Shown in pieces: positions 37,177 to 58,512 of a DNA stretch of 64,000 nt. A program made the position numbers and the translations under genes. Each line of letters begins with the position of its first letter. The stretch's first letter is position 1. The notes below the pieces were generated by a model. That model saw nothing but the letters and a program-made list of their open reading frames with translations. It ran no database searches and was not told the DNA's origin. Origin of the DNA: a phage; the sequence record PZ445488.1. One strand, written 5' to 3'.

Positions 37177-37485
37177 TCAATTAGAAAATAAATTTATCCA
37201 AGTTTTTTCTTTAATCAAAAATGGGTCAGAATTAAACGCCATTAAACTTTGAGTGATTAATCCCTTAAACGGCCCATCAATAAATTCCATTTTGAAATGC
37301 GGAATACTAGTCATCAACCGTGCATTAGGAGCAGTACAAAGAACCTGCTGCCCTGCGAACGGACCTTTAGTCAAACGATATCGTTTAGGTTTAAAATGGT
37401 AAATCTCGTAATTTTCTACAAGAGCCCTTTTATTGCATACTGGGCTGTTATAACAATACTCAAAAACTTCAATAGTGGTCATCAT
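37177..37485 (-). CDS. hypothetical Cys-rich protein
   Basis: ORF track frame; start moved to ATG 37485 to remove the overlap with the upstream gene. Confidence 0.4.
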   Translation of the reverse strand: MMTTIEVFEYCYNSPVCNKRALVENYEIYHFKPKRYRLTKGPFAGQQVLCTAPNARLMTSIPHFKMEFIDGPFKGLITQSLMAFNSDPFLIKEKTWINLFSN

Positions 37486-38021
37486 TGCATTCCAATCACA
37501 AAAAATTGAGGACGAGCAATACCGCCGATGCAATATTTGCTTTTGCAACAGTGTTGGACTGTTTTAATATGGACATTGTAAATCTTATCCATATCAGGAG
37601 CTTTAATAGGCTCGTCAATTATGTACAGAATACGAGAAAGCGTTAATCCACGGAATTTAGAACCTTCATTGCCAATAAAACTACGGACAGAATCAGTAAA
37701 TAAACGGAATCGAATATCATCGCTAGAATAACGAGAAAATTCTTTTTTAATGTTGCCAGCAGAAATTTTAGCATAGGCTGAAGTATTAGAAAGAACAATA
37801 ACTGTTCCACCGTCATACAGCCAATTAACAGCAAAATTAGTTACTGCAGTCGATTTACCTGATTGTCGGCCGCCGTCTAAACGAAGTGTACAGTACTGCT
37901 TGAGTACGTCTTCAAACGGTGGGATATAACCGTTCTTACAAATTTCTTCTACTCTAGCATCAGAATGGTGTGTAAAAGCATTCATCAGGGATAGATAAGG
38001 TCCAGTTAAAAATGTTCTCAT
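37482..38021 (-). CDS. P-loop-containing protein (179 aa)
   Basis: ORF track; Walker-A-like GGRQSGKST. Confidence 0.5.
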   Translation of the reverse strand: MRTFLTGPYLSLMNAFTHHSDARVEEICKNGYIPPFEDVLKQYCTLRLDGGRQSGKSTAVTNFAVNWLYDGGTVIVLSNTSAYAKISAGNIKKEFSRYSSDDIRFRLFTDSVRSFIGNEGSKFRGLTLSRILYIIDEPIKAPDMDKIYNVHIKTVQHCCKSKYCIGGIARPQFFVIGMQ

Positions 38022-47296: not shown

Positions 47297-47923
47297 TTAC
47301 TTACGAGTTTTTGCATACTGAGCAGCGTCAGCAGCCAAACGACCTGCTTGTCGAAGTTTTTCTTTAATCTCATCATGAAGTGGTTGAGTATACTTCAAAC
47401 CTTCGATAGTCAAATAAAGACGATAAAGGTCTGGGGTATCAAGGTTGTTGATATGTTGGCCATTACGAAGACTATTGAATTCACGAACGAGTGAAGATGT
47501 ATCAGATTCAATATCACGAACAAGCGAAGATAGTTGTTTATATTTTTTTTCCAGGCTAGAAGTATCAAACTTAAGAGCAGGAGCTTTAGGAGTTGCTTTT
47601 ACTTCCGGCTTAGGCTCAGGTTTTGCTACTGCTTTAGGGGTCGCAGGTTTAGGAGTGGTAGGAGCAGGTTTTACTTTAGGCGAACCAGATTTAGCAGAAA
47701 CACCACCACTAACAATATCTTTGAATGCTTTAGAAGCTCTGTAATATTCTTTTTGGCTGGAAGTGTCGATACCGTACATGGCTTGAACGTTTTTGAAAAA
47801 CTCTGTACTAGTTTTTGTACCAGAAATAGCATCGTAAGCAGCTTGCCATTTCTCTTTTGTCATACGTACACCGGCTTCGGTGATTACTTCCGTTTCGGCT
47901 AAAAATTCATTAAAAGTATACAT
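47297..47923 (-). CDS. internal-protein-like capsid-targeted protein (Lys/Pro/Ala-rich)
   Basis: 208 aa; N-terminus MYTFNEFLAE resembles the T4 internal-protein leader; a late promoter lies 36 nt upstream. Confidence 0.55.
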   Translation of the reverse strand: MYTFNEFLAETEVITEAGVRMTKEKWQAAYDAISGTKTSTEFFKNVQAMYGIDTSSQKEYYRASKAFKDIVSGGVSAKSGSPKVKPAPTTPKPATPKAVAKPEPKPEVKATPKAPALKFDTSSLEKKYKQLSSLVRDIESDTSSLVREFNSLRNGQHINNLDTPDLYRLYLTIEGLKYTQPLHDEIKEKLRQAGRLAADAAQYAKTRK

Positions 47924-54515: not shown

Positions 54516-55091
54516 TTGTTATTTACATTCTTCGACCCAATAGGATATAGTGCTAAAACAGTTGATAAGAATGCACCTACTATTCCTATGACAGACATAT
54601 TTCGTAACTATAAAGAGTACTTTAAACGTGTTGCTGCCAATTATAGATTACGTTCTTATTACATTAAAGGCTCTCCACGTCCTGAAGAACTAGCAAACAT
54701 AATTTATGGCAACCCTCAATTATACTGGGTCCTTTTGATGTGTAATGATAACTATGATCCGTATTATGGTTGGATTACATCTCAGGAAGCAGCGTATCAA
54801 GCGTCTATTCAGAAATATGCAAATGCTGGTGGAGACCAAATTCTTTACCATATTAACGAGAACCGTGAGAAATTTTACAATTTAGTTTCATATCCAGACG
54901 AGCCTTTAGTGTGGTATGATAAAGGTGATGAAGCTCGTAAGTATCCGCAATATAAAGGACCTTTAGCTGCAGTAGATACTTATGAAGCGGCAATATTAGA
55001 TAATGAAAAACTTCGTAAAATAAAAATTGTTGCAAAAGAAGATATAAACTCGTTTATTACTGATTTGATTCGTGAGATGGAGATTGCATAA
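54516..55091 (+). CDS. 53: baseplate wedge protein gp53
   Basis: MLFTFFDPIGYSAKTVDKNAPTIPMTDIFRNYKEYFKR... matches T4 gp53; TTG start with GGAGA RBS. Confidence 0.85.
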   Translation: MLFTFFDPIGYSAKTVDKNAPTIPMTDIFRNYKEYFKRVAANYRLRSYYIKGSPRPEELANIIYGNPQLYWVLLMCNDNYDPYYGWITSQEAAYQASIQKYANAGGDQILYHINENREKFYNLVSYPDEPLVWYDKGDEARKYPQYKGPLAAVDTYEAAILDNEKLRKIKIVAKEDINSFITDLIREMEIA

Positions 55092-56827
55092 TGGAAATGA
55101 TTAGCAGTAGCCTTAATTGGTTCGTGGGTGTTGTTGAGGACAGAATGGACCCATTAAAACAAGGGCGAGTTCGAGTTCGAGTCGTTGGTCTTCATCCAGC
55201 ACAGAGAGCACAAGGTGATGTACAAGGTATTCCTACAGAAAAACTTCCGTGGATGACTGTTATTCAACCTATTACGTCTGCATCAATTTCAGGTATTGGT
55301 GGTTCTGTTACAGGTCCTGTTGAAGGAACTCGAGTATATGGTCATTTCTTAGACAAATGGAAAACAAACGGGATTGTACTTGGTACATACGGCGGAATCG
55401 TACGTGAAAAGCCTAATAGACTTGAAGGTTTTTCAGACCCGACTGGCCAATATCCGCGACGTTTAGGTAATGATACGAACGTATTAAACCAAGGTGGTGA
55501 AGCTGGTTATTATTCAAACTCTAACGTAATTCAAGATAACAACTTGGATTATGGTATAAACCCAGATGATACAGATTTAGCAAATATTCCAGAAGATGAT
55601 GACCCTAATTTTACAATAACAGAAATGTTACGTCGTGACGAAGGACTTCGTGATAAAGTGTATTGGGACCATCTAGGGTATCCTACAGTAGGTATTGGAC
55701 ACCTTATCGTAATGGAAAAGACCCGAGATATGTCTCGAATTAATAAATTGTTATCTGATCAAGTAGGGCGTGAAGTAACAGGAAATCCCGGGACTATTAC
55801 ATTAGAAGAAGCAACAGCGTTATTTGAGAAAGACCTTGCTAAGATGCAGAAAGATATTCGTTCTAATTCTAAAGTAGGTCCTGTTTATGCCAAAATGAAT
55901 AGGTCTCGCCAAATGGCATTAGAAAACATGTGCTTCCAAATGGGTGTTGGCGGTGTAGCAAAATTCAATACTATGCTTAAAGCAATGGCCGCAGGCGATT
56001 GGAAAACTGCATACAAATCTGGGCGTGATTCGTTATGGTTCCAACAGACTAAAGGACGTGCTTCACGCGTAACAACAATTATTTTAACTGGTAACATGGA
56101 ATCATACGGTGTTCCTGTTAAAACACCACCTTCGCCTGGTGTTGGTGCCGATTTAGTTACTAGAAATACAGATCCAGAAGATCCGGCTAGTCCTCCTGTT
56201 CCATTAGATTCACGTATCCTTTTTAAAGAACCGGAATCAAGTTATCGTGGTGAATACCCGTATGTTCATGCTATGGAAACAGAAAGCGGACATATCCAAG
56301 AGTTTGACGACACTCCAGGTAATGAACGTTATCGCTTAGTTCATCCAACAGGGTCATATGAGGAAGTTTCTCCATCCGGTCGTCGTACTCGTAAAACTGT
56401 AGAAGACCTTTTTGACATCACTAATGGCGATGGGAACTTCTTGATTTCTGGTGATAAACTTGTTAACGTTGGTGCTAATGAAATATATTATAACATGGCA
56501 GACCGCCTCCATCAAATAGATGGCAGCGACACAATCTTTATTCGTGGTAACCAAACTAAAACTGTTGAAGGCGATGGAACTCTTTACGTTAAGGGCAATA
56601 TCAAAATAGTTGTTGACGGAAATGCAGATATTCTTGTTAAAGGTGATGCTAAAACTCAGGTTGAAGGGAATCATGATTACACCGTCAACGGAAACGTTAA
56701 ATGGACTGTTAATGGTAATGTTGATATGACTGTTGCCGGGAATTGGGCAGAAACAATGTCTACAATGAGCTCAGTAGCTTCAGGACAATACACAATTGAT
56801 GGTAGCCGTGTGGATGTCGGGTTATAA
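55091..56827 (+). CDS. 5: baseplate hub + tail lysozyme gp5
   Basis: 578 aa; internal lysozyme domain (DEGLRDKVYWDHLGYPTVGIGHL, like gene e); C-terminal beta-helix VxGxxxxx-type repeats. Confidence 0.95.
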   Translation: MEMISSSLNWFVGVVEDRMDPLKQGRVRVRVVGLHPAQRAQGDVQGIPTEKLPWMTVIQPITSASISGIGGSVTGPVEGTRVYGHFLDKWKTNGIVLGTYGGIVREKPNRLEGFSDPTGQYPRRLGNDTNVLNQGGEAGYYSNSNVIQDNNLDYGINPDDTDLANIPEDDDPNFTITEMLRRDEGLRDKVYWDHLGYPTVGIGHLIVMEKTRDMSRINKLLSDQVGREVTGNPGTITLEEATALFEKDLAKMQKDIRSNSKVGPVYAKMNRSRQMALENMCFQMGVGGVAKFNTMLKAMAAGDWKTAYKSGRDSLWFQQTKGRASRVTTIILTGNMESYGVPVKTPPSPGVGADLVTRNTDPEDPASPPVPLDSRILFKEPESSYRGEYPYVHAMETESGHIQEFDDTPGNERYRLVHPTGSYEEVSPSGRRTRKTVEDLFDITNGDGNFLISGDKLVNVGANEIYYNMADRLHQIDGSDTIFIRGNQTKTVEGDGTLYVKGNIKIVVDGNADILVKGDAKTQVEGNHDYTVNGNVKWTVNGNVDMTVAGNWAETMSTMSSVASGQYTIDGSRVDVGL

Positions 56828-56830
56828 ATA
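56823..56830 (+). promoter_or_regulatory. late promoter motif TATAAATA (plus strand)
   Basis: Exact octamer overlapping the gp5 stop, 16 nt upstream of the 56846 ATG. Confidence 0.5.
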
Positions 56831-56845
56831 ATTCAGAGGTAAATT

Positions 56846-57307
56846 ATGAAGAAATCCAAAACCATACAATTCCGTTACATTTATAAATCAACAGTAACCA
56901 ACCCAAAGGGGTTGGTTCGAATATATATAGGAAAGCATGAATCCAGATATTTTAATCTAGAGGATGATAATTACGTAGGAAGCGGGGATTATATACAAAA
57001 GATTAAAAACAAACCAGGCTATGCTATAGATTTCGAAATTATCGAATTCGTTTCAACACTCGATGTTTTAAATGAAAGAGAAAAATTTTGGATATCTGAA
57101 TATAGAAAAACAGGCCAGTGTGTTAATATAAAAGACGGTGGAGATGGATTTTCTTCAAACGATTTAAAACGAATGTGGTCTAATCCTGAGTATCGAGAAA
57201 CTCAACTTAAAGCTTTGGCAAAAGGAAAATCTACAAAAGAATTTTCAGAAAAATTTCAAAAATTAATAAACTTAGATGTTCGGAATCTGAATATCGAAAG
57301 AAAATGA
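56846..57307 (+). CDS. GIY-YIG homing-endonuclease-like protein (seg family), catalytic N-terminal part
   Basis: GIY-YIG signature YIYKST...VRIYIGK; first copy of a WSNPEYRE-type DNA-binding repeat; ends in an ATGA overlap with the next ORF. Confidence 0.6.
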   Translation: MKKSKTIQFRYIYKSTVTNPKGLVRIYIGKHESRYFNLEDDNYVGSGDYIQKIKNKPGYAIDFEIIEFVSTLDVLNEREKFWISEYRKTGQCVNIKDGGDGFSSNDLKRMWSNPEYRETQLKALAKGKSTKEFSEKFQKLINLDVRNLNIERK

Positions 57308-57708
57308 GTAATGCGATGAAAACTGCTTTTGAAAATGATCCCACATTAAAAATTCGTATTTCTAATACTGTCAAATCTTTATGGAAATCCGATGAATATA
57401 GAAACAAATTAATTAATCATCCAGGAAAAATAGAAGGAACGAAAAAATCCTGGAATAATCCTTTAATAAGAAAATCAAGATTAGATACTAGAAATAAAAA
57501 ACTAAGATCAGTTGAACCTTGGATTAGTATTGAAAAAGTCAAAAAACTTTGGGAGGATTTGGGAAAACCTCATCCGCAGAAATATAAATGGTTTAGAGAA
57601 AAAGCAATTGAACATAATCTACCGGATGTAAGTTATAACGCAATTTTAAAAGCATTGAAAAAATGTGATTATAAATTTACACCATTGGAGAATTCAATAA
57701 TTGGCTAA
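57304..57708 (+). CDS. seg-family endonuclease C-terminal DNA-binding part (separate ORF or frameshifted remainder)
   Basis: Repeats WKSDEYRNK and WNNPLIRKS continue the motif of the preceding ORF; its frame is open about 26 codons upstream of the ATG. Confidence 0.5.
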   Translation: MSNAMKTAFENDPTLKIRISNTVKSLWKSDEYRNKLINHPGKIEGTKKSWNNPLIRKSRLDTRNKKLRSVEPWISIEKVKKLWEDLGKPHPQKYKWFREKAIEHNLPDVSYNAILKALKKCDYKFTPLENSIIG

Positions 57709-58216
57709 TATACTTCCTTTAAATACCGACTTAGGAGAAGACATGGAAGGGGCGTCTATTGACGTCCTTTTTACTCCACAGTTAGAAACAACCGAAACTT
57801 TAGTGTCAATAAATATAACAGATTATGAACCGACACAAGGCATTACGGTGGACGGTAATCGTTTATATGGAACATATGAAAGTGTGTTTAGCTTTTCTTC
57901 TGATGCATTGAAATACCGATTAAATGATGATTTTGAAACCGCATCTTCATGGGATGATTTACCAAAAGATGAGTCAACACAGTTATATTTGTGGAGAGCT
58001 CCTCAGAATCTTCGTAAAGTGTTTAGTTATACGGTTGAAATGATTTATAACCACCAAGAAGAAAGTTCATCAGGCGGTTCTAGAAGTGACTCTGGTACAG
58101 AACCTCCACCGGCTCCAGTACAAAAAACTCTTACTAAGGTTTATACAAAAACTATAGTAGGAAATTGGAGCAAATGGGCTCATCAATTACGAAACTATGT
58201 TTATGTGAGGCCGTGA
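57701..58216 (+). CDS. hypothetical late protein (gp5.1 position)
   Basis: ORF track; between the seg-like ORFs and PAAR gp5.4. Confidence 0.5.
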
Positions 58217-58218
58217 AA

Positions 58219-58512
58219 ATGTCTGGTTTAAGTTACGACAAGTGCGTTACAACAGGTCATGAAGCATGGCCTCCTACTGTAATAAATGCTTCCCAATCTA
58301 AAGTGTTCACCGGCGGTATTCCTGTTCTTGTGGCAGGAGACCAAATAACACCTCATACAGAAATTAAAAAACCATACGAGACTCATGGAGGTGTTACTGA
58401 ACCTCGTACATCTAAAGTATACATCACCGGTAAAAAGGCCGTTCAAATGGCTGATCCAATTTCATGCGGTGATACTGTTTCTCAGGCCTCGTCAAAAGTC
58501 TTTATAAAATAG
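58219..58512 (+). CDS. 5.4: PAAR-repeat spike-tip protein gp5.4
   Basis: From ATG 58219: [14 protein letters not shown]...; 97 aa as in T4 gp5.4; the track start 58165 is TTG. Confidence 0.8.

Follow-up and report, generated by a model that had tools for sequence, protein, structure and literature searches.

A seg-like GIY-YIG homing endonuclease gene lodged in the last codons of phage gene 5 and its apparent disruption by a one-base deletion

The closest described counterparts of the gene considered here are SegC of phage T4, the intron-encoded endonuclease I-TevI and the frameshifted homing endonuclease genes of the vibriophage ICP1. T4 segC, which is located between 5.1 and 5.3 (PMC2988022, Table 1), encodes a free-standing nuclease of the Seg-type GIY-YIG group and lies in the same gene 5-6 interval of the baseplate cluster as the gene described here. 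SegC, however, is only 140 aa long and has another C-terminal part, and neither segC nor 5.3 is present in the window, by which is meant the whole stretch of 64,000 nt of phage DNA that was analysed (PZ445488.1). An assignment as a SegC orthologue was rejected, given the position of the window gene between genes 5 and 5.1 and an identity to SegC of 32% over the nuclease domain only (BLASTP E 3e-8; hhalign probability with the family profile 99.6%). I-TevI has the same catalytic fold and motifs, its Glu75 and Asn90 corresponding to E79 and N94, and the same order of an N-terminal nuclease and a C-terminal DNA-binding part, whereas the window gene is free-standing and encodes W-x2-PE-x-R helical repeats with a further C-terminal domain. 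In ICP1, gp115-gp116 and gp5 are frameshifted homing endonuclease genes, which the authors of that study read as inactivation (PMC10448857). There too a frameshift separates a nuclease ORF from a DNA-binding ORF, but the nucleases are of the HNH and T5orf172 families and the phage belongs to another group.

T4 itself may offer a second case. The segC (140 aa) and 5.3 (56 aa) genes of T4 (NC_000866; L006 5197-5792) correspond to a single ORF of 196 aa in T4_ev151 (L014 6383-6973), the two being distinguished by one frame-breaking base in GAGGGCCTAGAGGG(C)CTAGAGG, and the T4 pair has the appearance of a further seg gene broken by a 1-nt indel, or else of an error in the reference. The idea that T4_ev151 is a laboratory recombinant with a homed gene was rejected, since across the region its identity is about 97% to T4 and to T6 alike, and it is simply an ordinary Tequatrovirus.

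The initial annotation of the window recognised, between gene 5 and gene 5.4, a seg-like homing endonuclease with a GIY-YIG motif that is divided between two overlapping ORFs, and offered inactivation by frameshift, programmed frameshifting and a two-subunit arrangement as explanations. The two ORFs and their ATGA overlap (57304-57307) are as it described them, and gene 5 is indeed the upstream neighbour, but downstream the gene is followed by gene 5.1 and only then by gene 5.4 (Table 1). The motifs that it had recognised are also in place. ORF1 has Y-I-Y at residues 11-13, Y-I-G at residues 27-29 and one WSNPEYRE repeat at residues 111-118, while two more repeats, WKSDEYRN and WNNPLIRK, are found in ORF2. 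The frame of ORF2 is open upstream of its ATG, as had been noticed, although for 31 codons from 57211 and not for about 26.

Table 1. Features of the disrupted gene and its surroundings, in window coordinates.
Feature	Position	Strand	Remarks
Gene 5 (baseplate hub and tail lysozyme)	55091-56827	+	578-aa ORF; annotated gp5 in ZQ3, F2, T6 and T4
Recoded 3' end of gene 5	56798-56827	+	GAT GGT AGC CGT GTG GAT GTC GGG TTA TAA
TATAAATA, match to T4 late-promoter consensus	56823-56830	+	Overlaps gene 5 stop; kept in three lineages with the element
Shine-Dalgarno GAGG	56836-56839	+	6 nt upstream of the seg ATG; kept in T6 and in the third lineage
ORF1	56846-57307	+	153 aa; GIY-YIG nuclease domain and first repeat units
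Hairpin, 9 bp, AACCAACCC-AAAG-GGGTTGGTT	56896-56917	+	Within seg, 5' part, between the codons for GIY and YIG
Stretch open in both frames	57211-57303	+	93-nt overlap; includes 31 codons of the ORF2 frame upstream of its ATG
Lesion, A5 run	57249-57253	+	A6 in ZQ3 and F2
Mosaic tract	57289-57717	+	93-98% identical to the T6-type gene
ORF2	57304-57708	+	134 aa; remaining repeats and C-terminal domain (presumed DNA-binding part)
Right edge, ATTGGCTAATATACTTCC	57700-57717	+	Last codons and stop of seg; equals T4 gene 5 end and spacer
Gene 5.1	57743-58216	+	68% identical to T4 gp5.1; phrog_1168; Shine-Dalgarno AGGAG at 57733-57737
Gene 5.4 (PAAR spike tip)	58219-58512	+	PF05488, E 1.1e-10

The origin of the split is apparent from a three-way alignment of the window with the Escherichia phages vB_EcoM-ZQ3 and F2. 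A 1-nt deletion in the run of A residues shifts the frame at codon 137/138, so that residues 1-137 of ORF1 are authentic and residues 138-153 (FQKLINLDVRNLNIERK) form an out-of-frame tail. The frame of ORF2, which is -1 relative to that of ORF1, encodes the authentic sequence ISKINKLRCSESEYRKK from 57254 on, and the open stretch upstream of the ORF2 ATG carries a further repeat, CSESEYRKK. Aligned with the intact protein, ORF1 follows it to residue 137 and the ORF2 frame takes it up again from residue 138. The real junction is therefore not the ATGA overlap, where it had first been placed, but lies 55 nt upstream of it. Full-length homologues in a single ORF do exist, yet the repeats are continuous across the junction in them and the break falls inside a repeat unit and not at a domain boundary. 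Apart from the missing base the window differs from ZQ3 and F2 at only two positions of the gene, 57288 (T/G), a silent change when read in the true frame, and 57697 (A/G), which exchanges Ile and Val. Read from the sequence, ORF2 has no good ribosome-binding site or Shine-Dalgarno sequence of its own.

Genes without this break were found in three lineages. In ZQ3 (QWY13391.1) and F2 (YP_010068992.1) the gene is one ORF of 864 nt encoding 287 aa, at the same site and with the same junctions and mosaic structure, and its nucleotide identity to the window copy is 99.7%. About 30 Tequatrovirus genomes of the T6 type have one ORF of 867 nt (288 aa) at this site, next to the same recoded end of gene 5 and with 86% amino-acid identity; T6ncORF142 (AXN58183.1) of T6, annotated as a "seg-like" hypothetical protein, is one of them. 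The third lineage, which is more divergent and comes from a Logan metagenomic assembly, likewise has a single 288-aa ORF there. The codons at the position of the lesion are GAA AAA ATT in ZQ3 and F2, GAG AAA ATA in the T6 type, which lacks a long A run, and GAT AAA ATA in the third lineage; of the three lineages compared, only that of the window has the mutation-prone A6. The gene as a whole is distributed patchily, being present in 33 of the 186 matching records. Most Mosigvirus records match the flanks alone, and in T4 no gene separates 5 from 5.1. Searches of the literature turned up no study of this particular element. The Seg lineage to which it belongs has been annotated before, without experimental characterisation in that literature, and the window copy is a further member of it.

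Profiles and structure establish the locus as a free-standing gene for a Seg-like homing endonuclease of the GIY-YIG type, the Pfam models being silent. A Pfam scan of the intact and the split proteins gave no match to GIY-YIG or NUMOD3, in the case of the intact protein not even at E <= 10, and with NCBIfam ORF1 reached 19.8 bits against TIGR01453, below the cut-off of 56. The intact protein does match PHROG_314 "homing endonuclease" with an E of 7e-20, over residues 9-240, and when a profile was built from 50 homologues it matched the catalytic domain of I-TevI (1LN0) with an E of 2.8e-9, the GIY, the YIG, the catalytic Glu and the Asn all being aligned. Structures of that domain are available as 1LN0 and 1MK0, and the beta-beta-alpha-beta-alpha arrangement of the GIY-YIG fold is found in the window protein. 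Among the 50 homologues Y13, Y27 and G29, which align with the GIY/YVG motifs of I-TevI, are invariant or nearly so. In the family alignment N94 is invariant and E79 conserved to at least 90%; E79 and N94 align with the ERE and YNI of I-TevI. R34 is a candidate for the counterpart of I-TevI R27, in a variable stretch that is poorly aligned. Some of the 50 relatives do match Pfam families, namely SegE_GIY-YIG (14/50), GIY-YIG (9/50) and NUMOD3 (7/50); NUMOD3 (PF07460) is also matched by P0004 and P0006. In an exhaustive search with HMMER, 1257 representative relatives of typically 200-350 aa were recovered, and their matches are continuous across the break point.

Downstream of the nuclease domain the intact protein has about six repeat units of 17 residues and then a C-terminal domain. 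The family consensus of the repeat is W-x2-PE-x-R-x-K-x-S-x3-K-x2, a 17-residue unit that looks related to the NUMOD3 motif and may likewise bind DNA. From the architecture of GIY-YIG homing endonucleases it would be expected that the repeat region and the C-terminal part together make up the DNA-binding portion of the protein. A sequence search of the PDB with the C-terminal 185 aa gave no meaningful match, and the AlphaFold model is poor outside the nuclease domain.

The gene lies inside the last codons of gene 5, which it replaces, and stops on the old stop codon of gene 5. Genomes of both genera that lack the gene end gene 5 with GGA TCx xGx ATT GAx ATT GGx TAA, whereas those that carry it end gene 5 with GGT AGC CGT xTx GAx GTx GGx TTA TAA. 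The recoding of the last seven codons is mostly synonymous, with one extra Leu, and is common to all genomes of the two genera that have the gene; it marks the left edge of the element. This recoded end is probably a version of the target site that is immune to cleavage. The comparison with insert-free genomes which the initial annotation had proposed shows both the absence of the element from most Mosigvirus and a different end of gene 5 there. At the protein level gp5 ends ...DGSR(I/V)DVGL in phages with the element and ...DGSRIDIG in those without it (window 56822-56827), and the extreme end of the spike is therefore altered by the element. In the T4 baseplate this C-terminus is the end that carries the gp5.4 PAAR tip.

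The element also appears to bring its own expression signals. The match to the late-promoter consensus at the gene 5 stop is of a kind that is not enriched in the window (8 found against 7.4 expected), and its putative promoter role is suggested by its position and its conservation. A hairpin within the coding sequence is kept in all three lineages, with z-scores of -3.9, -5.6 and -3.6, and none of 200 shuffled sequences was as stable; it is found at 651-672 of the T6 record (L008) and at about 124-143 of L013. In the T6 type the stem carries two compensatory changes from C-G to T-A at synonymous positions and has a GAAA loop. Such a structure may limit the expression of the endonuclease.

At its right edge the ORF ends ATT GGC TAA TATACTTCC, which is identical to the end of gene 5 of T4 and the spacer behind it. 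This is a junction of the Tequatrovirus (T4) type on a Mosigvirus backbone, the empty site of Mosigvirus being ATTGGGTAATATATGGCACAAATACTTCC. F2 has in addition a longer tract of T4 type within gene 5. The T4-type right junction and the longer tract of F2 together indicate that a Tequatrovirus-like phage donated the element and that the flanks were co-converted. The interior of the gene is mosaic as well. The 5' half, which encodes the nuclease, shares about 70% identity with the T6 type, and there is a sharp switch at about 57289 to the much more similar tract that forms the rest of the gene (Table 1); the nuclease half and the flanking genes are at about 70-78%. Compared with the T6 type, dS is 0.25 in the 3' half and saturated in the 5' half. 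The third lineage is divergent in the 3' half, which points to recent exchange of that half between phage lineages of different genera rather than to constraint. In both halves dN/dS is well below 1, and the intact gene is thus maintained by selection.

Loss of the gene was also encountered. In four Tequatrovirus genomes, those of Shigella phage ESh36, 215Ecol030PP, LF73P1 and LF73P3, seg is absent and a deletion footprint is left (ESh36: L016 1170-1240), where the recoded end of gene 5 runs directly into the final 37 nt of seg, with the 8-nt repeat TTATAAAT at the join. The window has this 8-nt sequence as direct repeats at 56822-56829 and 57669-57676. The locus therefore occurs as a naive empty site, with an intact gene, with a frameshifted gene (in the window) and with the gene deleted, states which, taken together, are those expected from the life cycle of a homing endonuclease gene.

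The reading which is preferred for the window copy, with a probability of roughly 0.55, is that it is a recently inactivated pseudogene in which a real 1-nt deletion represents a step of decay. This was one of the options offered at the outset, and it agrees with the single-ORF homologues in three lineages and with the continuity of the repeats across the junction. The alternative that survives best, which the initial annotation had not raised and which must be regarded as quite possible if doubtful, is that the phage really has A6 and an intact endonuclease of 287 aa, the A5 being an undercall of the homopolymer in a region where an assembly gap was closed. Loss of a single base from a homopolymer is a classic sequencing or assembly error, and the missing A is the sole frame-breaking difference from ZQ3 and F2. 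A draft contig of phage CEV1 matches the window at 99.99% identity over 20 kb, and a second contig does so at 99.88%. The draft breaks off at 57223 and begins again only at 57541; the lesion is inside this gap (57224-57540), in a stretch that was hard to assemble. Over the 20-kb contig (KM389388) the draft and the window differ only in the length of homopolymers, at 47543 (T8 vs T7) and 54423 (T6 vs T5), and exact look-ups of the split proteins in the protein collection found no independent record of them. At both of these discrepancies, however, the ORF is intact in the window, and the errors are apparently in the draft record. When 83 ORFs of a relative with 97% identity were compared, every one proved to be unsplit in the window, and at one T-run it is the relative whose ORF is broken while that of the window is whole. 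With the window correct at both discrepancies and no other gene split, its homopolymer error rate appears to be low, which favours a real mutation, and decay of the same element has been seen independently in other phages. Neither an A5 nor an A6 version of the site was found in the viral and metagenome contigs that were scanned, and the window holds no second copy of the gene that would explain the break in the draft assembly.

A homopolymer split of the opposite kind, lying in a relative, was observed at another place. An ORF of 179 aa at 37482-38021 (- strand) is intact there, whereas phage CAU_ECP01 (L012 8513-9053) has two overlapping 'endoribonuclease' CDSs in its place, the difference being T6 versus T7 at window position 37743.

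It is also conceivable, though improbable, that the split copy still functions, slippage in the -1 direction or reinitiation at the ATGA yielding a trace of enzyme or a DNA-binding fragment that occupies the target. Were this so the window would hold a naturally attenuated or repurposed homing endonuclease. Its first form, which the initial annotation had raised as programmed frameshifting, is that a -1 ribosomal frameshift or transcriptional slippage provides a low level of full-length protein and hence an attenuated endonuclease, an explanation to which very little weight is given; in its specific form tRNA-Lys would slip back at A_AAA_UGA (57301-57307) and read AUG next. The geometry would allow it, as a -1 shift anywhere in the 93-nt overlap of the frames joins ORF1 to ORF2, and an AAA codon directly before a stop, as in A AAA TGA, belongs to a known type of shift-prone sites. 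This one, at the stop codon of ORF1, is the sole shift-prone feature, from which a trace of fusion protein might arise, although fusion at this point would scramble 16 residues of one repeat unit. The region 57240-57340 folds into a mildly stable structure (z -1.9), but not significantly so, since 9 of 200 shuffled sequences were as stable, and neither the lesion nor the zero frame within 57211-57303 has a canonical X XXY YYZ heptamer. The frameshift is, moreover, found in no relative. In the three lineages more than 30 genomes keep the frame, with codons that differ between the lineages at the site, and the evolutionary conservation that is the hallmark of programmed recoding is consequently lacking.

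The suggestion of two subunits, in which ORF1 supplies the nuclease and an ORF2 reinitiated at the ATGA cooperates with it, or ORF2 alone binds or protects the site, is the least probable of all: ATGA overlaps can support translational coupling, and in ORF2 the bulk of the repeats is kept along with the C-terminal domain, but ORF2 lacks a Shine-Dalgarno sequence, all of the 30-plus homologous genes as well as the wider family encode one polypeptide, the break is within a repeat unit and not at a domain boundary, GIY-YIG homing endonucleases, as known from I-TevI, need the nuclease to be covalently tethered to the DNA-binding domain, and a single base separates the arrangement from an intact gene that is 99.7% identical. 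Even when the recoding and two-subunit readings are taken together they are considered very unlikely.

If the copy in the window is indeed a recently inactivated pseudogene, its history may be pictured as follows. The intact enzyme would cut the unrecoded end of gene 5 in phages without the element, which would then be copied in during repair, bringing with it the recoded end of gene 5 and, apparently, its own late promoter and ribosome-binding site. Loss of one A from the A6 run would subsequently cause translation to stop 16 codons further on, leaving a nuclease domain deprived of nearly all the DNA-binding region and probably inactive, while the remainder of the gene would persist as an ORF that initiates weakly or not at all. 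The window copy would thus stand at one point of the cycle in which such elements usually invade, decay and are lost.

Since loss of a single base from a homopolymer accounts for the split, the finding has little weight as a discovery in itself. For annotation, the two ORFs are better recorded as one disrupted seg-like gene. What the locus does show is the stages of the life cycle of a homing endonuclease side by side, in a Seg lineage whose likely target is the last codons of the essential gene 5.
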